A stretch of 64,000 bases of DNA from NCBI GenBank assembly GCA_050273025.1, contig CP158635.1:18290001-18354000 (forward strand). Direction: 5' to 3'. The notes beneath the pieces are model-generated. The model was not told the DNA's origin. It did not search any database and saw nothing but the letters and a program-made list of their open reading frames with translations. The translations under genes and the position numbers were made by a program. Shown here one piece after another: positions 2,371 through 64,000 of this stretch (within the stretch, counting starts at the first letter, position 1; every line of letters starts with the position of its first letter). The stretch is from Cenococcum geophilum (taxonomy: Eukaryota).

Positions 2371-2479
2371 GCGACCTCCTAATAGGAAGCCGAGTATAAG
2401 TGTCTCCTGGAGCTCCTAACAGCCCTAATAGGAGCTATTAGGAACCTATTAGTACTATTAGGAGGTATAAACATTTTCC

Positions 2480-4391: not shown

Positions 4392-4435
4392 CTAATCAGT
4401 AAGCGCGCATAGATCAGCAATCACTCGATACCTTC

Positions 4436-4617: not shown

Positions 4618-5029
4618 CCTTCCCCGAGCGATACTCGACAGCGACTACCCGTTTAGACTCCTAGTACGACCTACTAAAAGGTCGGAAGTTGGGGATTACG
4701 GACTATCACTAATTTTGTATACTTATTTAAGTCTTAGTACGGTTTACCGGAAGTTTATAGACGCGAATATAAACCCTTATAAAACCCCCTATCCTTAACC
4801 CCCTCGAACCTTAAACCCCTCCGGACCTCTTATGGAAACCCCCTACCCTTTTATAAAACGTTACAGACCCGTTAATCGCCTTTACGGACCACTATAAGAC
4901 CTCTCGAACCGTTACGGACCCGCTAATCAATTTTACGGACCGTTATAAGACCTCCTCCACCCGCTACAAGCTATTACCACCCACTATAGCTTATACAGAC
5001 ATACTACGCTATATAACATAGCAGATATA

Positions 5030-5430
5030 ACTAAGCAAATTAGTGAAGGTTAAAAGAAGTGGAGTTAGGGAGTCGACCTTACGTCTATAAGCGACGTTAA
5101 CGACTATATTAAGTTTAAAATCGTTAAATACGGATATTTTAAGCTTATAAACAATGACGACTTATAGGAGCAATACTAGGAAGACTTTGTAGACTTTACG
5201 GAAGCTACTTTTAAGGCTTATAACCGTATAGCTACCTATAACTTACGAACCCTTTTACGTCACTAAGGTGTATAGGTTAATAAGCGAGTTACTATTACAC
5301 AGTCTTTATACGATATATTATGCGAGGAGGACCAAACGAAATGGACTAAAGAGGAAGTCCTAGACCATATCAATACCAATAGATTCTTTACTTCTTGTAA
5401 ACTTAACGAGATCTTTATAGGACCTTTAAT
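5030..5430 (+). pseudogene. gag: gag N-terminal remnant of element D (continues 10866-11241 and 19573-20540)
   Basis: Reads ..EDFVDFTEATFKAYNRIATYNLRTLLRH*GV*VNKRVTITQSLYDILCEEDQTKWTKEEV with RIP stops. Confidence 0.7.
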
Positions 5431-5435
5431 ATATA

Positions 5436-29890: not shown

Positions 29891-30601
29891 TTGCTTCTCT
29901 ACTTTCCCTTTTACCTAGATATATAAACCTACTTAACGTATTATTAGTAAACCTCTTTAAGATTCAGATATTAATTAATATATCTATAGGGAAAGATCTA
30001 AAGGCTATTATTAGTAAACTAAAGTGGTTAAATAAATATCCCCTTATTAAGGATCTTATTACTTATTACGGACGCTTTAAGTACAATGTTACGACTACTA
30101 GGAGAGGAGTCGGAAGAAGCTAGTTGGTTAATAAGAGCACGGTCTAGGATGGATTTGGTAGAGCTATGTGACGAGGAATGGTAACTAAGGTCACATAATA
30201 TAATCTATATAATCTATAGGATCTGTGTAATCTGTAACAGAGTAGATAGAGCGCACGTATATTACGTATAAGAAGGATTTTATAGGAGTATAGTTATGTA
30301 TTTAAGGACCCTTAGTCCCTACCTAGATAGTTCCTTCCTTGTAGTAATTCTTAGAATATAATTAGAGTTAATCTATTAGGCAACCACTCTACCAGTTATT
30401 ATTCGTTGTTGACTTTAATTTGTATTACCTACACACCTAGCCTATTAATAGAACCCACCGTAGTACTTGCTATAAGGTTCCGTTATATAATTACTACCTA
30501 GTTACGGTATTAAATATAGAAAGTTAAATAACACGCCACTAAAAGCAGCCACTATAACGCTATCGACGGCGGCAACTACTTTAAGGTCAGGTGACACTAG
30601 T

Positions 30602-43090: not shown

Positions 43091-43599
43091 AGCTAAGCTA
43101 ACATCTTATAGCAGGTCGTCGCAACTAACGCGTCTTAACGCATTACGATTAAGAAAGTAAATAAGAAAAGGAGCTTTAGGAAATACTATAACTAAGCAGA
43201 CAAATAGAAATCTTCTATACGGCCATTACCTACATTCCCTCCCCCACCTTAGAACTTAACTATCCCCTAGTTAAACATCCTACACCTACGGCGAAGCCTA
43301 CTACGGAGCCTACTACAGAGCCTATTACTTAAGCGTCCGTCTCCAAAACCATCTCTAAGGATTAGACGATTCATTCTTTTTCCTAGCTTTAGCTGTCTTA
43401 TCTATAGGCTATAACCTAATCTAGATGTAATCTCCTAGTTATACATTCCTCTCCTATAGCTGTGCCTGCTGCTGCTTAACGGTTGTCCTAGTTATACGGC
43501 TGTCTCTAAGGGTTAAGCAAGTCTGCGGATATTGCTAGCTAGGCGTTACTAAGTCCATAGGCCGTACTTAATAGCAGTCCTCCTAGTTCGTCTATATTT

Positions 43600-45050
43600 C
43601 GTTATTATTCTATAGTACTACTCTATTATAGAAAGCTGGTTGCTACATCTGTTCTTTCCTTAGTTTATCTAGGTTAATTCCTTAGTATATACAAAGCTAT
43701 TCCTTAATACCCTCTAGCCGTGCTTTATTACCGAGCCACGGAAGTACTAGTCTAGGTCAATCGCGCGTCCCTACTACTAGCCTTTCTTAATTAAACAGAT
43801 ATACAAGTCCTTGCTAGATAAGATCCTTAAGCCCTTAGCATTTATACTTAGTGAAATAGTGTTTGCCTCCGCATCCAAAACAGGTCTACGGGCCTTGTCC
43901 TTACGGGCCTTGCTAACCCTATATATCCTACTATAGCCGTCTAAAGGTAGTAGAATCTTATAGATATTAAGAGCTTTACGGATATTAAGAACCTTATAGA
44001 GGTTAAGAGTCTTACAAATATTAGGTGCTATTCCGCTAGTCTTTATATCCTAGTGCTGGGCTATATCCTTATACTAGGCCTTAAGCTAGGCCTTAAGCTA
44101 GGCCTTAAGCTAGGCCTTAAGCTGCAGCCTAATTTAATAGCGTTGTAAGCTCCTTTAGGTCTATCTATATTTAATTAAAAAACGGTATCAATTGTGCAGC
44201 TACCGCAAGCTCCGTCTTAGTCGGTTTTAGACCCCTTAGCTAGCTTACCATTTCGTCCATTTTCTGGTCTACGGTAGGGGGTAACTACTACTATATTAGG
44301 GCTCCTCCGTATATACCTAGTCTTTGCCGCCGTAGCTCTTATATAAGCTAGATATTTAGGACATCTTCTTCCAGAAGGACATCCATTCGCTTAGCGCCCT
44401 CTATAGCCACTATTCTTAACTCTACGGCCTCCTTTAGTCTTTCAAATATAAGGGTTCTAGGCTCGTCTGCTACGGCCCCTGTCTTTTCTATTACGTGCCT
44501 ATAGAATTTAATAGGGAGACCTTACATAAACCACCGCCCCTTCTCTTGCTTAGTAAGGTTTCCTACGGCTACCGCTTTAGCTAAAAAGATAGTAAAGTCC
44601 TACACATAGTGATGTAATTCGCCTGGCTGCTTCGCTAACTTTCTAACAAATGCTTCCACAAAGTCTCTTATCTCTATACGTCAGTAGTAGTCCTTAGCTT
44701 AATATTCGGCTTAAAGTTTAGTTACTAGTCGGCTCCAGTCGTCCTATTTAAATTCCGGCATCATCTAAATAGCTTCCGCGTATAAGCCTTCGTAATAGTT
44801 AGGGAGACACGCGAGCCTACGATCTTCGCCTACGTAGTACCTTTAATATATGCCCTCGTAGTCCTTAATAAACCTAGAGATATTCTTTCCGTTAAACTGT
44901 GGAACTCCCTACCTAAAAGGATCTGGTATTGCTACCGTTAGAATAAATACGTAGTGTACTTCCCTTGCTGCCTAAATAGGTAACTACTGCGGTTGGTCTG
45001 CTTGTATAGCTATCTAAGGTAAGAGTATCCCAGATAGCTGTCTTAGTGGT
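43600..45050 (-). pseudogene. gag: gag of B1
   Basis: GVPQFNGKNISRFIKDYE, GRWFM*GLP, and zinc knuckle CFGCGGKH....C at ~43840-43885. Boundaries approximate. Confidence 0.75.
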
Positions 45051-46152
45051 ACTTTAGTACGTGTATGCTACGGCTAGTCCACTTATATATCTATATCCCT
45101 AACGGAAGGCACCTACTTCTTAACGCCTAAGGGGGGGTCTCCCTAAGAAAGTATAGAGTCTTCATTATCTATAGCCGCTGGGCCTTAATACGTCCGTCTG
45201 TTTTAGCCTACTATTATTCCACGCGGTAGGGTACTGCTACGCCTTAGGCTTCCGCTTGCATCTGCTCCTTTATAAAACGCCTCTAGAGCCGCCGCTAATA
45301 TAATCCGGATAACTTAAAAGAAGATAAAGCTAAGCCAGAATAGGAAGCTTTTAAGGACAGATCCGATCTCGTGTGCTTGCGACCTTACTTAGTATTGTCT
45401 CTGTTCTTAAAGGACAGTACTAACTTCCTCTGTCGCCAGATGTCTTAGATCTCATTTCTATCTAATTAATTGGCCCTTAGCTACCTGTCGTCTCTATATC
45501 TTTAACAAAGCTCTAGCTATGTCCGTGCGCAGGTAGAAGAAATATTAGCCGCTGTTAAAGTTGTCTAATTGGCTCACTGGTTCACCTAACGTCCTTACTC
45601 ATAACTTTCCAAGACACTCTTTTGCCACTCTTTAGCCTATACGTCGAGTCTAATGTCTATCTTTTTCGCTATCTTTCTATTTAGGGACTACCTAATTCCC
45701 CTTGCTATCCGATACTGCCTAGTTCTCTACTTTCGTCTCGTCTATCTAGCTGGTCGTTCTTCTATAGCTGTCCGTTCCTTTACAGCTAGTTGTTCTTCTA
45801 TAGTCGTAGTATATTCCTACATATCTTCTATATATAGAGTTGTGTATAGAATACCAGACTTCTAATCTAAAGAGCTTGCCGTCGTCCCTATATGGAATGC
45901 CATAAAATATATAGGAGGGTACGACCACTCTTAGATAGGAAAGTCATAGTGCCGTCTATCTGTCTGTCGGTCGGTCAGTTAGTTAGTCAATCGTCAGTCG
46001 TAATCAATCAGTAGGAAAGCAGTTAGTAAGAAGAAAGGAAAGAATGTATTCCGGTAGGTTGTGATAGAGAGAAAAAGAGAAGCCAAAGGCTCGATATATA
46101 TAGGAAAATGCCAAGGCACTAAGCAGTGGCCCATTTTACCCCACTACACTAG

Positions 46153-46490
46153 GAAGGTTACTAAGGAGTATTTAAATTATTAAAGAAATAAGCTAATAAG
46201 GTATAAGCTATATAGAGGGCTATAACCTATTAAAATACTAGAGAGATTATAGGAGGTTATATTATAGGACTTTATTATTAAGTTACTAAAATTAAGAGAC
46301 CTTATTACTGGATAAGATCATGACGTGATTTTAGTAATAGTAGATAAGCTTATAAAGTGGGGATACTTTATAGTATGCACGGAAGAAATCTTAGCGGAAG
46401 ATGTTGCTAAAATCTATATTAAGGAAGTGTTTATAAGATATAGAGCACTAAGTAAAATTATATTGGATAGAGATCTAAGATTCGTAGTAG
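46153..46490 (+). pseudogene. pol: pol part 2 of element A (integrase core)
   Basis: DFIIKLLK, ILVIVDKLIKWGYF, I.LDRDLRF. Confidence 0.88.
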
Positions 46491-49400
46491 TATAGGAGGG
46501 TACGACCACTCTTAGATGGGAAAGTCACAGTGCCGTCTATCTGTCGGTTGGTCGGTTGGTCGGTTAGTCGGTCAGTTAGTCAGTCGTTAGTCGTAATTAA
46601 TTAGTAGGAAAGCAGTTAGTAAGAAGAAAGGAAAGAATGTATTCCCGGTAGGTTGTAATAGAGAGAAGGAGAGAAGCTAAAGGCTCGATATATACAGGAA
46701 AATGCTAAGGCACTAAGTAGTGGCCCATTTTACCCCACTACATACCTCCCCTATTAAGAACGTTGTCCCCTAACGTTCTATACTATAGAAGAATAGCAAA
46801 AGTAAAATAGAAAAAGGAAAGTATATCCTTAAAAGAATACAGGTAACCTTATCCTTAGCCTTTCTATAGAACTATCCTATAGTGTCCTTTTTACTAGCGG
46901 TAACTAAAATAGCCGTAAACCAGAAATGATAATAGCAGTAGCAGCAGTAATAGTAACGGTAGTAGTAATAGTAAAAGGTAGATAGTTAACACAGTAAGAT
47001 AAAGCAAAACGGTTAGTAATAGAACAGTCGGTAAAAGAACTTAGTTTATATAGTAAGTAATAGGACATCTAGCAGCAGAACTTTTAGTAGCAGAAATCTT
47101 AGTAGTAGGACGGCCAGTAGCAGTTAGTTAGTAGTAGTTAGTTAGCGGCAGTCGGTCAGAATAGTAGCGGTAAAATAGTTGTATCGGTGGAATAAAACGG
47201 TGAAACAGTAGCAGTAGAATAGCTAGTTAGAACAATAGTAGTAGTAGCAATAGTAGTAGAATAGTCGGTTGGCGGCGGTCGGTTAGAGTAGCGGTTGGTG
47301 GAAACTAGAACGGAACAGGTTAGTTAGAATAATTGGGCGTTATAGCAGATCTAGTAGATCTAGCAGTAAAATAGATCTAGTAATGGTATAGATCTAGAAT
47401 AGTAGAGATAGAGCAATTGGTTAAGATAGTAGGGATAAAACAGTTGGATGGAATAGTAGCAGCGGCGGTGGTAATAGGGTAGTTAATTAAGACGGTAGAG
47501 GCTATAACCCGACTTAATTGTTTGGCTGCCGTTTAATATTAAAACTCTATATTTAGCTCTATATTAGTCTGCATCTAGCTATACATCTAGTTGTGCATTA
47601 ATAGCTCTGTATTGTATACCCTGCGCCTATATCTGCGTCTGCGTATATACGTGTATGGCTGCCTTAACTGCTAGCCGAAGACTATCTAATTGGTTGGCGA
47701 CGATATGCTATAACTAATCGTTCGGTTGTTCGATTAAGATAGAAAGTTGGCCCAATTGAAGGCTCTGACTATTCTAACTTGTATGCGGAGACGGCGTTTA
47801 AACTAATTAAGATTTAATAAGGCCCTGGCTTAACTTAAGGTATCCTCTGCTGTATATAAAGCTCTATATCCGTAGGCAGCCGATTAAAGCTTCTATATAG
47901 ACGTCTGGTCGGTTAAGGCTTCGCATCTACCGTTTAATTAAGGCTTTGCATATATAGGCGTCTAGTTAAGCTACCGTACTGTTATCCAATTAAGGCTCTG
48001 TACCTATATACTTACTATTTATAGACTCTGCGTATAACTCCGTGTAAGACTCTGTGTAAAGCTCTATATCTATATCTATAGGAAAGATCGTTCTAGGTAA
48101 CTAATCCGTGGGTGTTAAGATAGGCGGCAATTGATCTATAAGGGGAGGGGTAGTTAAGGGAAGAGGCTCTTATAAAGGCTCTAAAACGTTAATTAACCGT
48201 GTTTCTAACGTTCTTTTAGCCATATACTGGTTTCTTAATTAATCTAACTTGACTGCGGAGACGGCGTCCGATTGATTAAGATTTAACTAAGGCTCTAGCT
48301 TAACTTAAGGCATCCTCTACTGCACGATTAATTAAGGCTTCGCATCCGTAGGTTCCGCATTCGTAGATAATTAATTAAGACTCTAGCTGCGTAGTTGTTC
48401 TGTTAACGCTTCTATATCTATATAGTCGATTAAGGCTCCGTATCGTATAATTAGGGCTCTTAGTGTTTACTAGATGTCTAATCCAGAGGCCTGTCTTAAG
48501 ACTTCCTTCTTTGCGAGCACTAACGGTAGCTTTCTCTAAACCACTATAATAGGCCTAGTGCTTTTTTGGGATGTCCTTAATAGCTGCTTCCTTCTCTTTC
48601 TAGGCCGTCTTTATACTTAGCTTCCTTAGTATATCCTTAGGCTTTTGCGGCTGCTTCTTTGTTCCCGCTGCTAGCAGTACACTTGCGTATCCTTAATCTT
48701 CTTCCAGCTTAAGAACCCTCTTAAGATTGTCTTCTGCTTTTAGTCTCTTTATTACTATCCTACTAACTTTATACTTTATTTAAGTCGTCCTTCAAAACCA
48801 TCCGGTGGCAGCTTCTCGGCTATTATAACTACCTTTGTTGTATATCCCTTGGCCTTATATCTATAATGCAGCCCTTTATTAGACAACCTCTAAGGAAAAG
48901 CGCTGGTTCCTGTACGTCTAATTCCTATTCCCTTTATAATCCCTAATAAGGTCCTTTACTAGCTTAGCCAGATACGGCTCGGTCCTATCTTTAGTCGCAT
49001 GAAGATGGCTTAGGCACGCGGTGCTTTGTTACTAATATCGTGCTACTGCCTTTGTATAAGTCCCTTTCTTGTTACGGTGTCCGTTCTCGTCTTATAGCTG
49101 GCGCAGTACTGAATTTAGATAGAGGTTGCGAAGCTATAATTAGCTGTCGTTTAAATAAGGAATAAAGTCGGCCTGGTTAAAGGCTCTAATTTAACGATAT
49201 TTAACTGATTTAATTTAGGGACAAGACGTGCTAATATTAAGGCTCTGGCTTGGTTCTTTAGCTGGCCGTAGGTCTGCATCTATATACGGCTGATTATGGC
49301 TTCTATATAGTTGTTTGATTAATGCTTTATATATAGCTCTACGTCTAGCTTTATATTATACGACCGGCTTTATATCTATGCAATTAATTAAGGCTCTTGG

Positions 49401-51534
49401 TGCCGTTCTTATTGTATAGCTAGTATATTACCAAATTCTAGGGGCGGTATAGAGTTCTGCCGGCTTTACTGCTGAATAAACTAATTAGGATTTTCCGTGC
49501 CCGGTATAGAAAATCGCTATTAGCTTAGTAATAGGCGGTAAGCTAAACTAATATCTCTGCAGTAGGTTATCTTAATTAACGCGTTAACGCGTTGTAATTA
49601 GGAAAGTAAATAAGAAAGGAGCTTTAGGAAATACTGTAATTAAGCAGATAAATAAAAATCTTTTATACGTTACCTACGTCCCCTCCCCCACCTTAGAACT
49701 TAACTGTCCCCTAGTTAAATATCCTACCCCTCGGTAGAGCCTGTTGCGGAGCTTACTATAACACCTGCTACAGAGCCTACTGCGGAGCTTACTGGTTAAG
49801 CGTCTGTCTCCAATGACCGTCTCTAAGGGTTGGACGATTCTAATAGTAGTCCTCCCTAGCTTTAGCTGTTTTCTTTATAGGCTGTAACCTAATCTATATA
49901 TAATCTCCTAGTTGTATATTATTCTCCTACAGCTTAGTAGCTGTCCTACTGTCTCTAAAGATTATGCGATTTTAATAGTAGTCCCCCTAGTTTATACTTT
50001 TCTTATTACTAATCTTTAGCGCTACTCCGTTATAGAAGGCCCGCTATTACGTCTATTCTTTCCTTGGTCTGTTTAGGTCTGTCCCTTAATATATATAAAG
50101 CTAGTCCTTAATACCCTTTAGTCGTCCTTTATTACCAAGCCATGGAAGTATAGGTTTAGGCCGCTCGCGTATTTTAGCTACTAGTCTTTCTTAATTAGAC
50201 AGATATATAAGTCCTTGCTAAATAAGATCCCTAAGCCCTTAGCATTTATACTTAGTGAAACGGTAACTCCCTCCGTATCTAAAACAGGTCTATTAGCCTT
50301 GTCCTCGCGTGCCTTGCTAACCCTATACGTCCTACTACAATTGTCTAAAGGCAGTAGAATCTTGCGGATATTAGAAGTCCTACGGATATTAATAATCCTA
50401 TAGAGGTTAAGAGTCTTACAGGACAAAGGGAGCTTAGGCACTGTTCCGCTAGTCTTTATATCCTAGTGCTAGGCTATATCCTTATGCTAGGTCTTAAACT
50501 ATAGCTTAATCTAATAGCGTTATAAACCTGTCTAGGTTCTTTTAAATTTAGTTAAGGAACGGCATTAACTATATAGCTGCCGTAAGCTCTATCTTGCTTA
50601 ATTTTTAACTTAACTAGCTTGCCATTTCGTCTATCTCCTGGTCTATAGTAGGTAGTAACTGCTACTATATTAGGGCTCCTCTATATATACCTGGTCTTAC
50701 TAGGTCTAGAAGTCTTCCTTCTCTCCTATAGTTAAGCTCCTTAAGTTCTAGGTCCGTTTCCTAGCTAGCTTAACGGGCGTTAGCTATCTTATTTGGCTAA
50801 AAGATCGTAGGTAGTTAAAGGGTAGTATCTTTACTTATAACTATCTGCTAATTATAAAACTACTTAACTAGCTAATAAAGGCCCTAATCCTTGGGGTCTA
50901 TTTTTAATAGACGATCTGCGCCCTTATATAAACTAAGTTTGTCCTTTATAGCTTTTTACAGCTAATAAAAGTCAAAGGACGTTTGTCTATCTAGGTTAGC
51001 TCCCGTTTTAGCTATGGCGTATCTTTAATATTTAAGCGGAAGTCCTTTTATAAACCAGTATCCTTGCTAACCGTTATCTAAATTACCAGCTTTATGTTAC
51101 GGGACGGGGCAGTGGCTACAAGACGTATGTATTCGAGGAGTCTACAAGACGTTGCGCGATCGATCGTAAGGGTCGAGGGCGTAAGGAGGTGATATACCTA
51201 CGCGTAGCTGATATAAGCTATACGCGAGGTGTACGCGAGAGCACGGGGCTCTCCTATGGAGGCCCCTACAGTAAGGTTCCGTAACACTACCCCCCCTCCT
51301 ATAGAGGCGGAGCTCCGGCGACGCTGTGGTTACTATATACATATAGAAGGGACACTTAGGGTATAGAAAAGAAGAAAAGGGGGGTATTACTAAAGGCTTA
51401 AAACAACATCATATAATAAGGCTTGGCATCTAAGAATTTAACCAATTAAACAACTTCGACCGCCGGTCGAAGTTCCTAGACATCTCAACAATATTCCAGT
51501 TACGTAATCGCACTTTACCGCAATCTAACGGCAA

Positions 51535-54500
51535 TCTAACGGCAATTTGCCCCTACGTGGCAATATATAACGGTTTAACTCTATAAGGGCTCCCATAGAG
51601 GATTAGGTATAAAATCTCTACTTAGGCCCAGTTTCTATAGGTTCGTGTGGTAAAAGTCGCTAATTAAATCCTTTGCATTTTTAAAGTCTTTCTATAGTTG
51701 CCATTCTAGCTGGTCTATGTCAAATCCTATATATATAGCTCTATAGTAGAGCCGTCGTCCTCTACCTTTACTAAAGTATTTAGAGTTAATAATTCGTTTA
51801 ACGGTCCACTCCTTATGGTTCTCGTCTTTATTCTTATCTTAGATTAGTACTAGTAGGGGTTTAGGCTATATCTACCCCGGTAAGGGGTTAGGCTAATAAA
51901 GGTATAGTAGCTATAGGTAAAATACAGGCTATATCCTATAGGTGGCTAGGGCAGGCGGGAGCTCTAGCTCGTATACGGCTCCCCTATTAATAACTCGTTT
52001 AATTAGGTAGGGGCCAAGGTTCTTATAATTAAGTGACTTTATAGGCCTCTGCGTAGAGATATTGCGTGCATTTAGCCATACCTAGTCGCCAACACGCATC
52101 TCCGGTGGTAGCGTTCTATAACAGTCAGCGAAGTAGGCCTACTTTACTTAAGCCTAGGCCATTTCTCCCTTACAGTAGTTGAGTAGATTTTTTATGCGGT
52201 CTACATGCTGGTCGGTAAGTAATATCTTAAGGCGTTTTCCATATAGTAGTTTCTTATTAATAGGTTCTAGTGGTTCTATGCCAGATTAGGGGTAATATCC
52301 CTTGTTCGCGAAGAACGGGGTAAGTCCTATAGTAGTTAAGACGTAGTTATTCGCTACGAATTCACCTAGTAGGAGGTAATCCACCCAGTTATCTTAACTA
52401 TAGGCAACTACCTATTGTAGGTACGCTTTTATGCTAGCATTAGCGTTTTCCGGTTGCCTAGTAGTTTTATAATAGAAGAATATAGACATCTTAACGGAGA
52501 TACTAAGGCGTTAGCAGATTTATCTCTATATATTAGAGCCGAACTATATGCCTTAGTCGGACGTAATTAAGTTAGGTAACCCATATAATCAGTAGATTTC
52601 GCGGAGGAAGGCGTTAGTAACGTCGCTAACGGCTACGCCTTTAGTTAGGACGTAGTGGCGCTCTTTTATAAGTCGGTATATTATTATAAGGATATTCTTA
52701 TAGGTATGGCCATGTTGCTTATAGGGTAGTAGGTTAACAACGAAATCTATGGCGATATCTGCCCATCGTCGTATAAGTACTAGTAGAGGGTGCAGTAGTC
52801 CTTAGTACTTTGTATTAAAGGCCTTAGCGCGCTTATAACCGTAGTAGGCGCCTATAAAGTGTTTAACTAAGTCTATTATTTTAGGCTAGAAGTAGTATCG
52901 GCTAAGAAGCTTATAGGTTCCTTTTCTGCCTAGGTAGCCGCTTAATTGGAGGTCGTGGGCCATTTAGATTAGTTGCCGTTATAGATTTTCTAAGTTAGGG
53001 ACGAATAGACGGCCTCTATAATAGAGCCTATTTTCTTTTACTTCTAAGGCTGCTATATTAATCTAGCCTAAGCTTTAGAGTTTAGTCGGCAGCGTATGGG
53101 CGCTAGCGGTCTTTACGGCAATAAGTTAATACAGTAATAGGTTAACAGAGGTGTTATATACCGTAGTGATAAGCTCGTTAATTTTAGGAGGTAATTTTAG
53201 TTCTATGGTATAGAGCTGAGGTACAGTTAGCTCTATTATAGGTAGCATACCTAGGGCCAAATTCCGTGCTTTTAGGATTGTCTATTGTTGGAACTAGTTA
53301 TAGGGGTTATCTTTAGACTAAGGAAGGTCTTATAAGCAGCGTATTAGGCTATTAGGCTTAGTACCTTATACTCCTAGCCTGTATACAATTTTAAAGTTAA
53401 AACTAGAAAGGAACTCGTTCCAGTGTACTTGGCGTTAGTTTAGCTGTTTTATAGTTATAAAGTACTTAAGGTTGCAATAATCCGTAAGAACTTTAGTTGG
53501 CTAGTTAGGTTCTGCTAAGGAGAGTTCCGGTTGGAATTCCTTAAACGCTTATATAATTATAAGAAGTTCCTTATTATAGATCTTATAGTTATATTCTTAT
53601 AGTGTAAGCTTAAATAAATAGAATATGACTAGGTAGAGGAGACCGTCGTCGCCTATTTAGAAGAGGACGCCTGCGTTAATATAGTCTAAGGAGTTAGTCT
53701 TAAGATAGAGTTATTGTCCTGGTATAAAGTAAGCTAGAATAGGTGCTTTAGTAAAAGCATCTTTAAGATCTTAGAACGCCTTCTTATATTTAGGCATCTA
53801 GATAAAACGTAGATATATTTTTCTTCCTTTTATAAAAAGGCCCTTTGTTTGTATTATTACTATAAGTGGTGCTATAACACCTAAAAAGTTATATATGAAT
53901 TTTTAATAGAAGTTAGCAAAACTAAGGAAAGCTTGTACGTCTTTAATACAGTTAGGGGTTTGCTATTTGGTAATTATATGTACCTTTTTAGGGTCCATAC
54001 GGACACCCTTAGTAGTAACGATTAGTTTAAGGTATTTTACTTCTGTAACTAAGAATTTACACTTCTTTAAATTAATATAAAGTCCTATATCCCTAAGGCG
54101 CTGTAGGACCTTTTAAACGTGCTTAGTATACTTAAAAGGGTCATCGCTATAAATAAGTATATCGTCTAGGTACGTAGAGTAAAAGTCGTTAAGGTAGTCC
54201 CGTAAGGCGTTATTAATATAGCTTTAAAAGCTGCCTAGGCCGTTATATACGCTAAAGGGCATAATAGTATATTTGAATTGGCTAAAGCGTAATACGAATG
54301 CGGTTTTCTATTTATCACCTTCTCGTATTTAGAGGCGGTTAAAGGCGGCAATAATATTAAGCTTAGTATAGATTTTGGCTTAGCTAAGCCGCTTAAGAGT
54401 CTCACGTATAAGCGGTATAGGGTATTAGTTTTTAATCGTAATAGCGTTAAATCCTCTATAGTCAACATAGAATTAAATACCTCCTCCTAGCTTCTTAGTA

Positions 54501-55555
54501 AGGAGAATAGGGGCGGCTGCTAGGGATATACTAGGGCGAATAAACCCTTTATTAAGGTGTTTGTTAATATACTTTTTAACAACTAGAAGTTCGTCTTTTA
54601 ATATTAGGTAGGGTCTCTTATAAGATAGCGTTTTTCCTTATTTAATATTAATGGCATAGTTATTAGGTCAATATAGGGGGAGTGTATCTACGCTCTTTTA
54701 TAAGTATATGTTAATAAAGTTATAGTACCTCTTAGGGAGGAGCTTACGGAGTTCCTCGTTGGTAAGTCCTTTTTTAAGCTTTATAAACTTCTTAAAGTCT
54801 AAAGGTAAAAGTCCGTAGAGTTCTGCGGGGGTATCGTTTTCTAAAAGGTTAATTATGTCTATCCTATTACTATAGAGGATATGGTCCTATTCTTTATCAA
54901 GCTTATATAGTTATAATTAGGAGGCTACGGTAACGGTCTAGCCTTTCCTACATGCTATGCGGTAGAAGGCCGCGGCACTTATATAGTAGCAGTTAGTTAT
55001 AGGTAAGGTAATAAGGGGTTCCTTAAGTTAGTATCCTAGGGAGTAAATAGAGGCGGCTAGGCTATGTCCTAGGCAGGTCTCTCTACAGTATTTAAAGTTA
55101 AAGGTTACTTCTCTCTTTTTCTAGTCAATAGCGGGGTTATATTATTTGAGCCAGTTTATTCTAAGGATAATAGGGTAGTTAGTAAGTAGTATAATATAGG
55201 CCCAGAGTTCTTCCTAGTGCCCATTTATATCTAGGTAGAGTTGTGCTATATAGGTAATCTTCTATGCGGTATAACTACCGTTAGCGAGTTATAGGGCGCG
55301 GGCTTTAGTAAGGGGTAAGGTAGGTAGGTTATAAGTACGCACGAATTAGGTATCTATAAATTTATTAGTAGCTCCGCAATTAATTATAAAACGGCTTTTA
55401 TATTATTTTTTAGCAGTAGTTCCTATTATAGGTAAAACTATCTATTTCCGTCCATTTATCTTTATTAAGTTATCTATTAAGCAGGCTAATATATAGATCC
55501 CCTTATCGTCAGGGCATCCTAACCTGCGACTTAGGGCTAGGACTTGGCGTTTTCC
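51535..55555 (-). pseudogene. pol: pol of element C (PR, RT, RH, IN, chromodomain)
   Basis: INCGAT(=DCGA) at ~55370; YLDD at 54161-54172; WADIAIDFVV; GPYLI; chromodomain EWTVKRIINS at ~51600-51810. Ends approximate. Confidence 0.9.
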
Positions 55556-57090
55556 ATTTCCATATCTAACTCTACCGCTATTACTACATCTTCGTCTTAT
55601 ACGGTAGTGGCATATAGCAATATATTTGGTGTTTAAGGTACTAGGTTAGGTATTAGGCGGCAGCTGCTAAACCTAGCTATTAGGCAGTTTAGGCTATAGC
55701 TATAATAGCCTTCTTAACAACATCTATAGCAACGCTTTAGCTTCCAGAGTAGCTCGCGTTCTCCGTCTAGTAGCTTCTACGGGAAGGTTAGTATAAAAAG
55801 GTCAATATTAGGACCAGTAGTGTTACTTAGGGTAGTAGGCGTTAGTGGTTTAGTAGGTCCGGAGGGCTTCTATAGGGAGGTCTTCAGGCGGGGGTTTACA
55901 GTAGCAATCTAATTTAGTTATCGTTTAATCTTCTATATAGCTGCTACCATATTATAAATATTATTATAGTTATAGCTGGCAGCTGCGTAACTAAGGCGAT
56001 AAGTGACTTTTTTAAGGAGATCTTCCTAGTTTTTAGTATTATCTCGGGCAAGGGCTCCGGTATATTCCTAGAATTTAATATAGAACTTATTAAATAATTC
56101 GGTAGGGCTTATCTTTAGGGCACATAGTTTAGCTCAGTTGGTAGCTAGTAGGTTATAGTCGCGGTATATTAGGTTAAGATCATTAAGGACTTCTTAGTGG
56201 GACTACCACTTCTAGGGGCTATTGGTCTCCCATTAGGCGAAGAGTCTATTAAATAGTGTACCCTTTATTCGCCCAATAATGTAGCCAATCTTAATATCTT
56301 CCGTAGGAAAAAGGCAGGCGCTCTAAGTTAGTTTCTCGCGGATTTACATCTTCCAGTGGCTATATTCTTTGCGGTCTCCCTAGAAAACTAGGGGATTAGG
56401 GTAACGTACATTAGACCCTATAGTAGCAGCTTAGGTTTAGTTATTATAGCTTTTATTATCGCTTTAGTAGGGGTTTCTATTAGGTAAGGCTACTCGGCGC
56501 TAACTCTCTATTAAGCGTTAAGTAGGTGAAGTTGCCGGGGACATAGAGACTTAAGTGGCGTTATATACAGTAGAGAGGTATCTAGCATTATTACAAATAT
56601 GCTCATTAAGCTAAGATTATAGGTATTTAATTATGCCTTCTCTTTTAGTAACTATAGCAATAAGTGCAATCTTAGCCTTCTTTAACTATTAGACGTCGCG
56701 TTTAAACATACGGAGGTTGTCTTCAGTTTCTTAACGCGTGTTATCGGCGAGCGCCTCACGAGCTTGTAGGTCTTAGATGATATCGTGATCTTAGGTAGTA
56801 TGCATCTTGGCTTATATAAGCTTTAGGTGGTAGTTCTATAAAAGGCGGTAGTATTTATCAGGTTCTTATGCTACCATTTTTACAAACGTCTCGGCGTCTT
56901 ATATTTTAATTTCAATAGATAGTAGCCCTTCCACTTGCTTATCCGTAGTTATATAGTTAATAAAAGATAAGACATTATTAGTGTTTATCTCCTTAGGGGT
57001 TAAAGCTAGGGCTAATAAATCAAATTCTCCTGGAATTAATTGGCGTTGTAGGTTAAGTATAGGTATTGGATTATTCTTTAGGTTTAATAT
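55537..57090 (-). pseudogene. gag: gag of element C
   Basis: PNPLVF*GDRKEYSHWK, zinc knuckle CYRC at ~55730, and a G GAA AAC -1 frameshift-like heptamer at 55549-55555. Start approximate. Confidence 0.78.
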
Positions 57091-59130
57091 AGTAGCTAGT
57101 AAGAAATATTGTCTTACTATCGTGGGTTCCTTAGAAGTATAAAGTAAGGTAACTCATAGGCACGCTACTTTTAGCAGCGCCTATAGTATTACAGAAACGT
57201 AGAATTAGTTATAGGCTAGGTGTTAGTAGTAAAAAGGCGCAACGTAATATCATGGGACGGGGCAGTGGCTACAAGACGTATATATTCGAGGAGTCTACAA
57301 GACGTTGCGCGATCAATCGTAAGGGTCGAGGGCGTAAGGAGGTGATATACCTACGCGTAGCTGACATAAGCTGTACGCGAGGTATACGCGAGAGCACGGG
57401 GCTCTCCTATAGAGGCCCCTGCGGTGGGGTTCCGTGATATTTAGTAGCCTTTTAAAAGATTAATGCGAACTATCTATAGTACTCGCGTATGCTATTTAGC
57501 GGATTGTCCCTATACTACTATATATAGGCTTCTAAGAATTCTACCGTTTCTATTTATTAAAATTAGTCACTTTCTTAGTATTCTGCCCTAAGCTTTCTTA
57601 TAAGCTCCGTCTAGTTACTAGCTATAAATTTAGGCAAGCTTCGGATCTACATCCCTATTTAGTAATTATAGTACTTTAAAAGGCCCTAGTACTTTTCCTT
57701 ACTTATTATATAGTGTTGGACGTATAGCCGTTCGTACTGCTTAATAAACTATAATATGTTCTACCCTATAAAGTACGGAGTTCTAACGGTTCCTAGGGCT
57801 AGTATAGGCTGGACTATAATGTAGACCTTATCTTAAGCCGTTAACCGCTATCTACGTATATCTAGAGCTTCCTTAGGAGCTTGTAGGTGGTCCTTACGGC
57901 TCTTATCCTTTATCTACTAAGGGCTATTGGTCCTAGGTGTTATGGGTAAGCGCTGCGGTAGGTTTACTTATATGGCCGTAGTCTTAATAGAGGGTATCCT
58001 AGATAGCTGTCCTAGTGTTAGTTTATACTTAGCAAAAGAAGTATAGGCTTTAGTTCCTTCTGGCTGCTTCTTAACGCCTAGAGGTCGGTCTTTGTAAAAG
58101 AGTATAAAATCGCCATCTTTTACTACTGCTGGGTCTCGATACGTCCGTCTATTTTGGCCTGCCGTTACTCCGCGCGGTAGGGTGCTGCTAAGCCTTACAC
58201 TTCCGCCTGCATTTACTTCTTTATAGAACGCCTCTAGAGCTACCGCAGATATAATCTGGATAACTTAAAAGAAGATAAAGCTAAGCTAGAATAGGAAGCT
58301 TTTAAGAGCAGATCTAATCTTATATGCTTATGACCTTACTCGATATTATCTCTATTCTTAAAGGGCAGTACTAACTTCCTCTACCGCTAGATATCTTAGA
58401 TCTTGTTTCCATTTAATTAACTAGCTCTTAATTACCTATTGTCTCTACATCTTTAATAAAGCTCTAGCCATGCTCGTGCGCGCGCAAGTAGTAAGATATT
58501 GGGTAACTCTAACTACCAGTCAACGTCGTCTAATTGGCTCGTTGGTTTGCTTAACGTCCTTATATATAACTTTCCAAGACCTTTACCACTCCTTTTTGCC
58601 ACTGTTTGGCCTATGCGTTAAGTCTAATGTCCGTCTTTTCCGCTGTCTTTCTGTTTAGGGACTACCTGGTTCCCCTTACTATCCAATACTACCTAGTTCT
58701 CTACTTTCGTCTTATCTGTCTAGCTGGCAGTTCTTCTATAGCTAGTCATTCTTCTACAGCTAGCGGTTCTTCTATAGTCGTAGTATGTTCCTATGCGTAT
58801 ATAGTTATATATAGAATGCCAGACTTCTAATCTAAAGAGCTTGCCGTTATCCCTACGTGGAATGCCATAAAATATGTAGGAGGGTACGACCACTCTCAGA
58901 TGGGAAAGTCATAGTGCCGTCTATCTGTCGGTCGGTCGGTCAGTCGGTCAGTCGGTCGGTCAGTCGGTCGTCAGTCATAATCAATTAGTAGGAAAGCAGT
59001 TAGTAAGAAGAAAGGAAAGAATGTATTCCCGGTAGGTTGTGATAGAGAGAAGGAGAGAAGCCAAAGGCTTGATATATACAGGAAAATGCTAAGGCACTAA
59101 GTAGTGGCCTATTTTACCCCACTACAGTAG

Positions 59131-59975
59131 TATTTTAGGAAGTATTTTTAGCGGAATAAGGAGTTTAAGTAGTAACTTCTACCGTATATTACCCGCAGAC
59201 AGACAGTTAAATAGAAAGATTAAATTAGATACTAGAGCAGTATCTAAAGTATTATATTAATTACGTATAGAATAATTAGGTATCGTTATTACTAGTTATA
59301 TAGTTTGTATATAATGCAACACTATAAAAAGGAATGGGTATATTACTATTTAAGGCGAATTACGGATATAAGCTAAAGACATTACTATTGCTATATTAAG
59401 CGAAGAAGATAAGTAGTAGAGCTAATTAAAGAATAGAGACTTTAATAAATCTTTATATAAACCTTATAAAAATAGCTAAGGTAATATAGCAAAGAATAAA
59501 AAAATACTATAACGCTAAGAGATCTAAGGGACTAGATCTTAAGGAGGGAGATAAAGTATAGCTACTATATAAAAATTTTAAGAGTTAATAACTAAGTAAG
59601 AAGTTAGACTATATTAGACTAGGACCTTTTAAAATTACATAGAGAATTTTACTAGTTATATTTAAGTTAAACCTACTAGCTAAGATAAAAATCTACCCTA
59701 TATAGTATATTGTAATACTAGAGCTAGCATACGGGAATATTAAACTATTAGCCTATAAAGCAGATACGTATAGAGGATAAGAAGAGGATAAATAGTAAGT
59801 TTTAAAGATTATTAATTATAAGGATATCGATAATAAAATATAGTATAAGGTTAAGTGGATAGGCTATAATAAGACTACCTAGGAGCTACTAGAAAATCTA
59901 AAGAATGCTATAAGAAAGGTATAGGAGTATTAGAAGAAAATAGGTTAGGCAATATTAATAAGGAAGGATTGCTAA
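59131..59975 (+). pseudogene. pol: pol part 3 of element A (integrase C-terminus, GPF motif, chromodomain)
   Basis: STVYYPQTDS*IERLN, KKLDYIRLGPFKI, YKVKWIGY..TT*ELLENLKNA. Confidence 0.9.
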
Positions 59976-60580
59976 AGAATAAGTTACCTAAGGGGGACCT
60001 AGGAAGAGCGACTACTAAACTACTTAGAGTTGTTCCCTTTATTATAGGAAGAGAGTTAGTTCTCTTATTACTAAGTTCCTATAGACCTTGTTCTATAAGT
60101 TTCTACTCCTTAAAATAGACCTTCTTATGTACTTTCTTAAGACGAATTAACTAAGTAGACGTAGCAAGACGAGACTCGAGGGCCCGTTGTTAAGTATTGG
60201 TGGCCTCTTTCTTAGCGTCCTAAGAACAATGAAGTTCTGCTAGCGTAACTAAGAGCTTATTATTAAGCTTTGTAGTAGCAAATTAAACGCAAGACCCTAT
60301 AATAGATTACTTAGGGAACTTAAAGACTATTAAGAGTTATAGGGCGTGTATATTTAGCGTTAGAAATAGAGCGAATATTATAAGATAATTGAATATTTGC
60401 TTTAGTGCACTCTAAATAAGAGAATAGTTGCCGAGATAAAGGACTCGCCAGCGTAATATAAACTAACCCCTTTTTCGCATAACGAGAACATGGAGACGGC
60501 ATTATTTCACCTAGTAATAGTATAGAGGCAATTGTACGCGCACGACAAAGGGTTAAAGAAGAAGAAATTGCTTTAGGTAT
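59908..60580 (-). pseudogene. Antisense two-exon gene in the 3' region of element A: six-Cys zinc-cluster-like domain plus coiled coil
   Basis: Exon 1 contains the track ORF MPSPCSRYAKKGLVY...SYLECTKANIQLSY. Putative 55-nt intron at 60297-60351. Exon 2 reads ..LIRLKKVHKKVYFKE*KLIEQGL*EL. The 3' end is uncertain. Confidence 0.65.
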
Positions 60581-62034
60581 TATAAGTAACGATATTAACC
60601 AAATTAATTAGACGGATATTATACCTCTAGTAAATAACTTAGAGATACTAGGAATCTTTAAGGACGAAGATAAAGAGAAGGGAGATGGTGTTATAGATGC
60701 TTTAAGTACAATATTATAACTACTAGGAGAGGAGTTAAAAGAAGCTAGTTAGTTAATAAGAGCACGGTCTAGAATGGATTTGGTAGAGCTATATAATAAG
60801 GAATAGTAACTAAGGTTATATAATATGATCTATATAATCTATAGGATCTATATAATCCGTGATAGAGTAGATAGAGCGTACATATATTACGTATAAGAAG
60901 GATTTTATAGGAGTACGGTTGTGTATTTAAGGACCCTTAGTCCCTACCTAGATAGTTCCTTCCTTATAGTGATTTTTAGAATATAATTGGAGTTAATCTA
61001 TTAGGCAACCACTCCACCAGTTATTATTCGTTGTTAACTTTAATTTATATCACCTATATACCTAGCCCATTAATAGAACCTATTATAGTACTTGCTATAA
61101 GGTTCTGTTATATTACTACTAATAATAATTTATTAAATAACGCTATTTTTTAAAAACTTTTTAGCTAATAAACGCTTGCGGATTCTTTTAAGAAATAGTA
61201 ATTAAAGTCTATAGGTGCGTTAGGGATTAAAAGTTTAGTTAAAAGTTAAGCCGCTTCTATAAAGAGAGTTAGCTATATTATATTATTTATAAGAAGTATA
61301 GGATATTACAATATTACTAAAGCGGCTTTAGCTATTAGATATAAAATTAAGCTTTATATTATATAAAGGCCTAAAGGGGTAGGGCTATTAGTTCTTTTAG
61401 CCTTTACCTATAACGCTTCCTAGAGATTAAATTTACCTAATATTAACAATTTTCTTATAGCTTTACGGCACCGGTCTTATTTTATAATATTTAAAATTGT
61501 ATAAAGATATTTAGTTTAGATAGGATAGTATTAAGAGCTTTATTTTAGTTAGATACTTTCTTTTAGACTAATATATTTTAGCACTACTAACCGCCCTAGC
61601 TAAGCCTAAAAAAGCGAATATCCTCCCCTTATAAACGCCCCTATATAGAAGTTACTAAATATAAAGATCCTATATTAGCGTATAATTACTAACACGTAGA
61701 TCTAATAATATTATACCCTCTTTAGCTACTAATAACGGCCTTAATGAATAGCATGTAGATATATAAGAGTAGAGTTATACTTCTAAATAGTAGTATCTCT
61801 AATTTATTATAGGCTATAGAATATCTTCTCTATAATTTATTAAACAATATCCTTAAGCCTTTAAGCCGGCGGGCGAATCCCTTATACTATACCTTAGTTA
61901 AAAACGCTTATTATAAGATTTCCTTACCCCTTTTAATACCTACGGCAACCTTATGTAAAGATACCTAAATATAAATAGTATAGCGTGTTTAAATGGAAAC
62001 CCTAGCGGCTCTAGTTCTATAGACGTTAGTAGTA

Positions 62035-62300
62035 ATAGTAAATAAATAAGCTATAATAAGGCGTAATAGGTATCTAGAGACTAAATTAACGGTAATACAC
62101 TACTAGTAATTAGAAACAGTAAATAGATAAGCTATAATAAGGCGTAATAGATATATGGAGACTAAATTGACGGTAATATACTACTAAGAATTAGTAACAG
62201 CGAATAGATAAGCTATAATAAGGTGTAATAAGTATATAGAGACTAAATCAGTAATAATACGCTACTAGTAATTAGCGACAGCGAATAAATAAGCTATAGC
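62035..62300. repeat. 81-bp tandem repeat (3+ units)
   Basis: Units start at 62041, 62122, 62203 and 62284 (aatarataagctata...). Confidence 0.85.
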
Positions 62301-63505
62301 TCTGCATAATAGGTATATAATAAGTCCTTTAATAGTGCGGTTGCTATAAATTCTACTTATATATATTAATAAATTTCTTCTAAAACTCTTATATCGTTAT
62401 ATACCCTAGTTTTAGGTTTTTAACGCGGTATAATAATAGTTTAATAGTATCCCTTATTAAGCAGAACTAGTAGTTTAAGCTTAGCTAATAATCGGCACCG
62501 TAATTATTACACTAATACTATTTCTACTCCCGTTCTATTCTACCCATTATAAACTAGCCTAGTAATAGCTCTACCTACTCTCTAAATACGGGATAGTATA
62601 ACTAAGTAGGACTTAGGAGTCCTAATAAGGGCCAAAAGCTAACGTATATACTACTAAATTATTTAGATATTATATTAAAATGCGTCGTCCCGTAAAATAG
62701 ACTATTGGGCCTATATATAAAGAGTTTATATTAACTGCTTTAACTCCTAACTTTAGTAGTATATCTAATATCTTTAACTTAAATTCCTTATTTGCGTTAG
62801 CCGCTAGAGTTACTATACTAAAGTAAACTATGTTAAATATACTATTTTCGTAAGCTTATACGCTTTATTACTTTCTATAGTATCTGTTAAGGTAATAATA
62901 GGTATAGTTTTGGTTAGCGTAGTCTTCTAAATCTTCTATATTGTCTCCTTTAGGCTAAATTATACGAGGTTTATATACGACTTATTAATTACAAATACTA
63001 TATATATCCTATTCCGGTAATCCTTTATTAGAGTTTTATACTTACTTATTTTTTATATTACTATATCTAATTTTACAAGCTTACTATAAGTAAAATTGTC
63101 TAAGTAGTAGGGCAGTTTAGAGGGGTAGGCTTATTAGCCTATTTATATTTTACGCACTAGGTATACTAATTCACCAACACGCACGGATATTAAAATGCTT
63201 GGCATTTTAAATAAGCCTTAAACATTTAACACCCTAATGCTTAGGCTTTACCATTTTTATTAGCGAGGATTTAGTAGTAATGTTTTTAATGCCTTAAATA
63301 TACCGCTAAAGGTAAGCAACTATATAACCTATGTTTCTCTACCTATAATAGGCTACTAACCCTTATTTTTTATAGGCATACTTATAACGTCCCTTCTTAT
63401 CCTTTATAATATTTAGCGGCCTAATATAAACCCTATATATGCTCTAATAGAAACTACTACGCTATATAACCCCCCGTAACGGGACTAGCCTAATTATAGT
63501 AGAAA

Positions 63506-64000
63506 TGTAACGGAACCTTATAGTAAGTACTATAATAGGCTCGTTAATGGGCTAGGTGTGTAGGTAATGCAAATTAAAGTTAATAACGTAATAATAACTG
63601 GTAAAGTGGTTGCCTAATAGATTAACTCTAATTATATTCTAAGAATTATTATAAGGAAGGAATTATCTAGGTAGGGACTAAGGGTCCTTAAATACACAAC
63701 CGTACTCCTATAAAATCCTCCTTATATATAATATACGTACGCTTTATCTACTCTGTTACGGATTATATAGATCCTATAGATTATATAAATTACATTATAT
63801 AACCTTAGTTATTATTCCTTATTATATAGTTCTACTAGATCTATTCTAGACTATACTCTTATTAACTAACTAGCTTCTTCTAACTCTTCTCTAAGTAGTT
63901 ATAACATTATACTTAAAGCGTCTATAACACTATCTCCCTCCTCTTTATCTTTATTCTTAAAGATTCCTAGTATCTCTAAGTCGTTTACTAGAGGTATAAT
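63506..64000 (-). mobile_element. 3' LTR (63506-63929) and PPT of another A-family chromovirus running off the window
   Basis: 424-bp reverse complement of the A LTR, followed by the reverse complement of the sequence just upstream of 60689. Confidence 0.93.

Follow-up and report, generated by a model that had tools for sequence, protein, structure and literature searches.

The antisense gene and its host element

A 64,000-nucleotide stretch of the Cenococcum geophilum genome (assembly GCA_050273025.1, contig CP158635.1, positions 18,290,001 to 18,354,000; this whole stretch is the window, and all coordinates are window positions) contains the interrupted remains of a Ty3/gypsy retrotransposon of the A family and, on the opposite strand near the 3′ end of that element, a two-exon gene. 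The gene and pol converge tail-to-tail, with the gene placed after the chromodomain and before the polypurine tract, and a gap of 108 nt separates its start codon from the 3′ long terminal repeat (LTR); in the window copy exon 1 is 229 nt and exon 2 is 386 nt plus the stop codon, the 55-nt intron contains a stop and shifts the frame by one, and the product in this register would be about 205 residues (Table 1). We consider it very probable that an ascomycete Ty3/gypsy chromovirus of high copy number possessed a genuine accessory gene with the structure described here, and that 59908-60580 (minus strand) is a copy of it destroyed by repeat-induced point mutation (RIP).

The host element is one Ty3/gypsy copy split by nested insertions into three pieces (30064-35714, 46157-46493, and 59123-61121, by blastn with the full-length copy L003); the complete element measures about 7.8 kb, and each of its LTRs about 435 bp. 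To judge by its domains it is a chromovirus, as the initial annotation held, because Pfam finds protease, reverse transcriptase, RNase H, SH3_Tf2-1 (E 1.1e-7), and Chromo (E 9.2e-5) in a single frame of L003; the 3′ end of pol in the window, translated with X at stops, still matches SH3_Tf2-1 (E 0.0016) and, more faintly, Chromo (E 0.3). RIP has affected the entire window (TA/AT 1.45-2.05 and (CA+TG)/(AC+GT) 0.20-0.80 in 32 of 32 bins of 2 kb). The antisense gene in the window accordingly begins with ATA, has four of its six Cys codons converted to Tyr (codon starts 60481, 60460, 60418, and 60382), carries AT at the splice donor, and is interrupted in exon 2 by six internal stops (codon starts 60285, 60222, 60192, 60153, 60105, and 60081). 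The pol frame continues past the chromodomain (59937-60140, plus strand) for about 68 codons without an ancestral stop, the first being a TAA at 60138, and the tail-to-tail overlap of pol with the antisense gene is at least 29 nt and possibly about 230 nt.

Table 1. The antisense gene, its parts, and the pieces of A-family elements in the window
Feature	Position	Strand	Basis
Exon 1: start codon (ATA here, formerly ATG), Ser/Arg-rich N-terminus, Cys module, first base of junction Trp codon	60352-60580	-	
Cys module, C-x2-C-x6-C-x13-C-x2-C-x8-C	60380-60490	-	six TGY/TAY-only codons in 89 sequences
Intron, 55 nt: donor AT here (formerly GT), acceptor TAG, ancestral in-frame TAA at 60313-60311	60297-60351	-	
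Exon 2: linker, long coiled-coil helix with length-variable middle, Ser/Pro-rich part, conserved acidic-hydrophobic C-terminus, stop TAG 59910-59908	59908-60296	-	
3′ end of pol: integrase C-terminus, SH3_Tf2-1-like part, chromodomain (59799-59936)	59123-59937	+	Pfam, selection
Polypurine tract adjoining 3′ LTR	60672-60688	+	read directly
3′ LTR of the element	60689-61121	+	LTR copies at 30064-30497 (+), 2485-2735 (-), 63505-64000 (-)
5′ LTR and first internal part of the A-family chromovirus, cut by nested insertion	30064-35714	+	blastn with L003: element 28-2186, 2238-5466
5′ LTR of the A-family element	30064 to ~30497	+	LTR ends read directly
Middle fragment (337 nt) of the A-family element between two nested insertions	46157-46493	+	blastn: element 5471-5807, 82.8% identity
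Second, inverted A-family copy: 3′ LTR and last 78 internal bases	63505-64000	-	blastn 60618-61126 vs 64000-63493, 89.4% identity

The ancestral gene as read from RIP-mutated copies

The initial annotation had quoted a minus-strand peptide lying between the chromodomain and the polypurine tract, and these 67 residues are the exact translation of 60378-60580, within a stop-free frame of 95 codons (60320-60607, minus strand). Taken by itself the window makes this only mildly unusual. A stop-free [C/Y]-x2-[C/Y]-x6-[C/Y]-x5-13-[C/Y]-x2-[C/Y]-x6-8-[C/Y] pattern occurs three times in the window, compared with 0.18 ± 0.43 times per shuffle in 100 dinucleotide-preserving shuffles, 16 of which contained at least one; frames of 95 codons or more number 21 in the window compared with 2.0 per shuffle, and a 95-codon frame is thus nothing out of the ordinary there. 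Pfam matched no family in the 95-codon frame of the window. The two other matches to the pattern are at 6003-6092 (plus) and 60796-60882 (minus); one is a Ser-rich low-complexity stretch and the other the product of a short repeat in the LTR.

Relatives were sought in metagenome assemblies, where a protein search with the 95-codon frame returned 74 short open reading frames (ORFs), many of 86-93 aa. A scan of metagenome contigs gave 614 matched stretches, 590 of which encode a relative of exon 1, and 79 loci were kept as the best tblastn matches to exon 1. We aligned 88 other copies with the window over the 2 kb from 61126 to 59130; both exons and the intron are present in all 89 sequences, and the copies differ chiefly by transitions, as expected from RIP. 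The stretch is also present in high copy number in three DNA read sets (48,078 contigs in X1), again with mostly transitional differences. A single RIP-corrected consensus (10% threshold) proved uninformative, with 54% G+C and long open frames in all six frames, and was replaced by shared transversions, shared indels, and sub-family consensus sequences.

Ancestral codons can be read from such copies on the basis that RIP converts TGY to TAY and never the reverse. The initial annotation had proposed that Tyr codons revert to six cysteines spaced C-x2-C-x6-C-x13-C-x2-C-x8-C, and each of the six sites is in fact occupied solely by TGY or TAY in the 89 sequences (TGY in 40, 42, 6, 19, 78, and 34, respectively), unlike former Arg sites which display mixtures of Arg, Cys, His, and Tyr. 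Because the codons are pure mixtures of TGY and TAY, the six sites were ancestrally Cys; and because neither CGY nor CAY is found at any of them, the Cys pattern stands above chance. That both the open frame and the Cys/Tyr pattern arose by chance in AT-rich, RIP-mutated DNA might have been suspected from the abundance of 95-codon frames (21), the frequency of Tyr (7.1% of six-frame residues), and the two further matches to the pattern in the window; this explanation is refuted by the ancestral cysteines, together with the selection, the indel pattern, and the unmutated relatives described below, and we assign it a negligible probability.

The boundaries of the gene can be recovered in the same way: i) the start codon is ATG in 20 of the 89 sequences and ATA in 68, and 87 have an in-frame stop upstream of it (60610-60608); ii) the intron donor is GT in 11, AT in 77, and AC in one, the acceptor is AG in 86 and AA in 3, and the intron is 55 nt long in 88, so that the segment 60351-60297 with its TAG acceptor stands as the initial annotation described it, and its donor did derive from GT, but the ancestral donor sequence is GTGCGC rather than the GTAYGC that had been suggested; iii) the stop within the intron at 60313-60311 is found in 84 (TAA in 81), and another ancestral stop, at 60309-60307, lies in the exon-2 frame directly before the acceptor; and iv) the stop that ends the gene at 59910-59908 is found in 88 (TAG in 87, TAA in one). 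Among the copies, no or almost no CAA, CAG, or CGA remains at these boundary stops. The stops inside exon 2 had been described as revertible to CAA, CAG, or CGA; this is trivially true but has no force, since every stop codon is, and it fails for the stop at 60105, which was formerly TGG (still TGG in 33 of 89). Exon 1 is free of stops in 10 of the 89 sequences, and each of the 86 sequences with an in-frame exon 2 has at least 3 stops there. The antisense gene is dead in every copy examined.

Selection on the antisense frames

Since RIP does not make transversions, we based the test for selection on transversions, counting only those common to at least 3 copies. The antisense frame of exon 1 has 32 synonymous changes to 20 that are non-synonymous (p 2.7e-8, for an expected synonymous share of 0.25), distributed over codon positions 1, 2, and 3 as 17/3/32; in exon 2 there are 46 synonymous and 59 non-synonymous (expected share 0.24, p 7e-6); and pol, as a control, has 26 and 24 (p 7e-9). 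The same test finds no frame with a significant synonymous excess in the intron, and nothing better than p 0.03 in any of the six frames of the LTR. The pol frame, extended over the exon-2 stretch, has 20 synonymous and 85 non-synonymous changes (p 0.90). Third-position variation changes phase by one base between 60331 and 60270, just as a 55-nt intron would cause.

The indels tell the same story. All ten indels in 59941-60580 shared by at least 2 copies are multiples of three (33, 21, 21, 12, and 12 nt, and five of 3 nt; eight of the ten in exon 2), compared with 6 of 25 in the LTR. Exon 1 ranges from 223 to 241 nt among the copies and exon 2 from 350 to 410 nt, and the summed coding length is nonetheless divisible by three in 86 of 89, bearing out the claim that the frame is conserved among copies. 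The middle of the coiled coil (60145-60253, minus strand) is hypervariable between sub-families, with a transversion share of 0.146 compared with about 0.02 in the Cys module; even this part varies by whole codons only. Judging from these substitution and indel patterns, purifying selection acted on the antisense frames of both exons, as strongly as on pol, while the family multiplied; a lack of such selection was among the outcomes that the initial annotation had named as refuting it, and none of these came about.

Two considerations tell against taking these figures entirely at face value. Choosing the loci by how well they matched exon 1 in tblastn could inflate the synonymous share of that exon; such a bias would not extend to exon 2 or to pol, both of which lie outside the query. 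In addition, the synonymous test does not by itself settle the strand, since over exon 2 the sense frame that shares third positions with the antisense frame has 43 synonymous and 62 non-synonymous changes (p 1.6e-4); the strand of exon 2 is assigned because of the database proteins and the ancestral stops. The corresponding sense frame of exon 1 gives 22 and 36 (p 0.005), the pol frame lacks an ancestral stop until 60138, and the window has an 81-codon sense frame at 59873-60118, so that one might suppose the coding signal to belong to the sense strand, whether as pol prolonged at its C-terminus or as a third ORF in sense, and the antisense frames to be mirror artefacts. We think this extremely unlikely: over 59911-60140 the pol frame has 4 synonymous and 28 non-synonymous changes (p 0.92) and the antisense frame 15 and 17 (p 0.0014), because of which we read the antisense as the selected frame there and the tail of pol past the chromodomain as apparently unconstrained; the almost invariant codon position of exon 1 is the antisense second; over exon 2 the sense frame lacks a Met and was interrupted ancestrally by a TGA near 60283-60285; and all unmutated database proteins use the antisense frames.

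Joined relatives and the intron

A family profile searched against 1.84 billion protein representatives gave 264 matches at E ≤ 0.001, and the 150 of these that were listed are all family members. One of the profile matches, P0127, continues past the Cys module into the helical part, and searching with it in turn led to P0222, a protein of 152 aa that is essentially unmutated and has all six cysteines. P0222 is 56% identical to exon 1 of the window (E 2e-21) and 37% identical to exon 2 translated with X at the six stops (E 3e-10); across the junction it reads SDAEWSRVQSAAAKLDGEL, and its Trp occupies the very place at which the final base of exon 1, together with the first two of exon 2, would form a codon. 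Splicing would thus create the Trp codon and open the helical frame that the initial annotation had foreseen. On the genomic copies, the alignments of P0127 and P0222 each fall into two parts that lie in different frames and are separated by about 55 additional bases, and no copy lacking this spacer was found among the 79 loci. As far as comparison of sequences can tell, a natural sequence exists from which the 55 nt have been removed precisely at GT and AG.

Some of the evidence, it must be said, is unfavorable to this reconstruction. P0222 and P0127 come from short contigs of 1246 and 2113 bp, and the joined forms may be derived from RNA or else represent intron-less DNA; the junction of P0127 differs from that of P0222 by one residue and several substitutions. 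In the RNA run X21, of which about 12 in 100 was read, 73 reads touch the 2-kb stretch, none is at least 95% alike, and all are partial fits; and among the joints listed for this run (15 of 45), 60351/60297 has no RNA reads. Expression of the gene finds no support in this run. One could accordingly dispense with splicing altogether, and postulate an unspliced antisense ORF of 89 codons that encodes only the Cys module and ends at the TAA at 60313-60311, with an unrelated conserved stretch downstream. An ancestral TAA does end the unspliced frame in most copies, many database ORFs have the unspliced form (86-93 aa), and a seventh Cys codon lies on the splice donor itself (TGY in 11 of 89, TAY in 78) with Cys in many relatives. 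Yet exon 2 has no ATG near its start and an ancestral stop just before the acceptor, which is why we recognize no separate exon-2 start, and it nonetheless exhibits coding selection and indels that are multiples of three only; the spacer is fixed at 55 nt in 88 of 89 sequences while the exons on either side vary by whole codons; and P0222 and P0127 join both parts. We therefore regard a gene without splicing as very unlikely. The unspliced frame does continue from 60352 to the ancestral TAA ending at 60311 (minus strand), and a short intron-retaining isoform of 89 codons is possible beside the spliced form. In all, the initial annotation, which had one ruined copy to go by, was right on structure: the strand, the start, the six cysteines, the intron borders, the junction Trp, and the helical second exon.

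The six cysteines are all present in P0222, P0158, and P0135, and their C-x2-C-x6-C-x13-C-x2-C-x8-C spacing, the same in the window, in P0222, and in distant relatives, is retained in clearly more distant element families (P0158, P0135, and P0136). Another database relative, P0076 (117 aa), has two tandem Cys modules in one ORF. The family profile found no longer, fused forms among proteins of 294-2000 aa, and look-ups of the names of relatives' clusters returned only "hypothetical protein". These data also bear on the idea that the gene is a fragment of a host gene, captured once and carried as a passenger without a role for the element. Retroelements do capture cellular sequence, according to the passages seen of one review (PMC7264820), and the architecture of the protein resembles that of host zinc-cluster factors; a passenger would sit uneasily, however, with a gene present in 590 of 614 matched stretches and in every aligned sequence, with purifying selection matching that on pol while sub-families diverged, with a Cys spacing kept in distant element families, and with the lack of longer host-type proteins over the range of lengths covered by the profile search, and we consider it very unlikely.

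The protein and its Cys module

The protein is predicted to have, in order, a Ser/Arg-rich N-terminus, the Cys module, a short linker, a helical stretch about 75 residues long, in the middle of which sub-families differ by whole codons, a Ser/Pro-rich part, and a well-conserved acidic-hydrophobic end. AlphaFold2 was run twice on P0222, with alignments of 88 and 13 rows, and predicts a helix at residues 77-151 with a predicted local distance difference test score (pLDDT) of 95-98, beginning seven residues past the sixth Cys. In a structure search this long helix superposes on solved dimeric coiled coils (Z ~7), a match that is generic, and matches were found to the long helix only. Gal4-type factors have a Cys6 module, a short linker, and a long coiled coil in that order, and the predicted model has the same arrangement, with a coiled coil that may dimerize.

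The likeness to the Gal4-type Zn(II)2Cys6 factors (Pfam PF00172, Zn_clus) goes somewhat further: the six cysteines form two CxxC...C halves, the module is N-terminal and followed by a linker and coiled coil, the distribution is restricted to fungi, and there are weak matches of P0222 to Zn_clus (E 0.075) and to the zinc-cluster factor Ppr1, its best sequence match in the PDB (E 0.56). In a search of the ESM Atlas with the whole protein, the nearest cluster (score 0.90, 200 of 256 features, representative of 204 aa, Ascomycota) carries the automatic name "Zn(2)-C6 fungal-type domain-containing protein". The present product differs from these factors in being of only about 205 residues, in lacking a middle homology region, and in being encoded by a retrotransposon.

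Much else about the Cys module cuts the other way. P0222 scores 13.6 bits against Zn_clus, below the gathering cut-off of 21 bits, and the alignment covers only positions 18-36 of the 39 in the model; P0127 gives E 1.5, and of the 75 RIP-mutated members scanned only 2 match Zn_clus (best E 0.079), no family being matched more often and ScfRs being matched equally often. The family profile finds no match among PDB sequences at E ≤ 10. The Zn2Cys6 fold has two short helices, each of which begins at a CxxC, packed around two zinc ions; in both AlphaFold2 runs residues 29-70 of P0222 have a pLDDT of 48-74, and the short helices predicted in the module (32-36 or 35-39, and 56-71 or 59-69) are of this low quality. 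The accepted Zn2Cys6 spacing is C-x2-C-x6-C-x5-12-C-x2-C-x6-8-C, and the initial annotation had called the present spacing close to it; five of the six intervals do fit, but the loop between the two halves, at 13 residues, is one too long. Canonical Zn2Cys6 domains have several basic residues between the second and third Cys, and here there is a single Lys. Finally, the Zn2Cys6 superfamily is very large, because of which 264 profile matches among 1.84 billion proteins are far below what membership would lead one to expect. We find the sequence evidence for a Zn2Cys6 domain suggestive, not sufficient.

There is thus an appreciable chance that the protein is real and its Cys module is something other than a DNA-binding Zn2Cys6 domain: another small zinc-binding or disulfide module, zinc-ribbon-like (CxxC...CxxC) or resembling DUF3716, a family of Cys-rich ascomycete proteins, that binds protein or RNA, the gene then acting as an assembly, transport, or anti-silencing factor and not as a transcription factor. 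To the half-model, sub-threshold Zn_clus match, the long loop, and the single Lys can be added equally weak zinc-ribbon matches in single RIP-mutated members (Zn_ribbon_IS1595, E 0.031; Zn_ribbon_Elf1, E 0.17), as well as an ESM Atlas search with the Cys part alone, in which no Zn_clus cluster appeared, the named clusters were hypothetical ascomycete proteins, and DUF3716 (Pfam PF12511) came up at a score of 0.76 in 28% of one cluster's members. Against such a module stand the Gal4-like order of module, linker, and coiled coil, the identity of the best PDB match, the Zn(2)-C6 name of the whole-protein cluster nearest by score, and the failure of DUF3716 to match P0222, P0127, P0223, P0158, or P0135 at E ≤ 10. 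Zn2Cys6 domains bind CGG-type DNA sites, and as for places at which such a factor might bind here, CGG/CCG pairs in the RIP-corrected LTR are few and without clear pattern; those few are clustered at 60841-60874.

Surroundings of the gene in the window

The two bins within 60600-60699, where the polypurine tract lies, are the best-conserved part of the alignment, with transversion shares of 0.003-0.008; within the 3′ LTR, 60800-60899 (plus) is variable, containing small repeats as well as indels whose lengths are not divisible by three. The 64-kb window was found to hold no second copy of 59130-60618. The inverted A-family copy is cut off by the window's end shortly before the gene, whose counterpart would sit just past it. 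Between the two inverted A-family LTRs, 62030-62318 is a unit in three tandem copies (81-nt spacing, 80-87% alike). The A-family element is split by nested insertions at 35715-46156 and 46494-59122, the second holding a minus-strand Ty3/gypsy element with matches to RVT_1, RNase H, protease, and integrase zinc-binding domains in one frame (52000-64000 scanned); with P0127 as query, the antisense gene had no match in this second family. A repeat of about 200 nt abuts the A-family fragments, with copies at 45954-46152, 46547-46746, and 58931-59130.

Comparison with known antisense genes of retroelements

An antisense accessory gene in a fungal Ty3/gypsy element is not new as a kind. In the Boty-like elements of Botrytis and Sclerotinia, the interval from pol to the 3′ LTR harbors the antisense gene brtn (published in 2011, Virology 417:248; known to us through passages of PMC7264820, PMC8365987, and PMC4227169), and a Monilinia transcript is described as similar to a truncated Pol and BRTN (in part of PMC5987419). 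As far as those passages go, the likeness is considerable, in that brtn too is an extra antisense gene between pol and the 3′ LTR of a chromodomain-bearing fungal Ty3/gypsy element and is present across the copies of the family; the present gene (59908-60580, minus) lies between a chromodomain (59799-59936, plus) and an LTR (from 60689), and occurs in nearly all of the matched stretches and in all of the aligned sequences. This comparison is by position and description only, the passages on brtn assigning it no domain or function, and the name BRTN is absent from the matches of our protein searches with the 95-codon frame, with the family profile (among the matches listed), and with P0127.

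Plant Ty3/gypsy elements also have antisense ORFs between pol and the 3′ LTR, among them gene23 of maize Grande and those of rice RIRE2, Silene Retand, and Phaseolus PvRetro13; in the parts of the review consulted (PMC7264820) their function is given as unknown, no similarity to known proteins is reported, and Grande is reported to have its own promoter upstream of the antisense ORF. The same source indicates that place and orientation are as in the present gene, that most copies of each family conserve the ORF, and that some of the products are nuclear. These are plant elements, however, Retand is no chromovirus, and the review text as seen does not contain the word "intron". In comparison, the gene described here has a recognizable Cys6 module, a predicted coiled coil, and a fixed 55-nt intron.

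HBZ of human T-cell leukemia virus type 1 (HTLV-1) is an antisense, spliced basic leucine zipper gene near the 3′ LTR, from which it is transcribed, and encodes a small factor with a dimerizing helix. In outline the present gene is alike: antisense, near the 3′ LTR, apparently spliced, and encoding a small putative factor with a helix that may dimerize. There is no sequence relationship, and the DNA-binding module here would be a Cys cluster rather than a basic region; with this proviso HBZ may be regarded as the closest functional analogue of the antisense gene. Antisense promoters in retroviral 3′ LTRs have been reviewed (PMC10186651) and are also mentioned in PMC7264820, both consulted in part. 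In the literature searched we found no description of a zinc-cluster gene inside a retrotransposon.

A possible role for the gene

The favored explanation runs as follows. The gene would be transcribed in the direction opposite to the genomic RNA of the element, from the 3′ LTR or the adjoining 108 nt; because the intron is antisense to the RNA that is reverse transcribed, it would never be removed from it and would be inherited by every copy. The spliced message would encode a small Gal4-type-like protein with a zinc-binding Cys module, a linker, and a dimerizing coiled coil, and most likely this protein would serve the element as a nuclear regulator of its own, probably one that binds DNA, acting on LTR-driven transcription or on silencing. 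We wish to stress that the parts of this explanation are not equally secure: while the gene itself is very probably real, that its product is a regulator we consider possible rather than probable.

A still broader proposal would be that some ascomycete chromoviruses, forming a widespread group, are "complex" retrotransposons with a dimeric zinc-cluster transcription factor of their own, expressed from an antisense 3′-LTR promoter, spliced, and binding the element's own LTR or host silencing loci for activation or protection. We offer this tentatively and, taken as a whole, think it rather unlikely; if it were true, the gene would be a fungal counterpart of HTLV-1 HBZ, and the elements might be one way in which zinc-cluster factors, along with their binding sites, are spread through fungal genomes.

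As a rule, gag and pol are considered the only genes of an LTR retrotransposon. The present family retained a third one, on which selection was as strong as on pol, with a product that is built, as predicted, like a fungal transcription factor and with an intron that can survive only because the gene faces backwards. The comparison of RIP-mutated copies can evidently recover a dead gene down to its splice sites, and intact relatives such as P0222 provide a short, testable protein. Should the protein act on the LTR of its own element or on silencing, the element would possess a control switch, like the complex retroviruses; and this, if true, would have a bearing on how families of this kind come to number hundreds of copies before they are killed by RIP, and on whether binding sites for a factor of their own are scattered by them.

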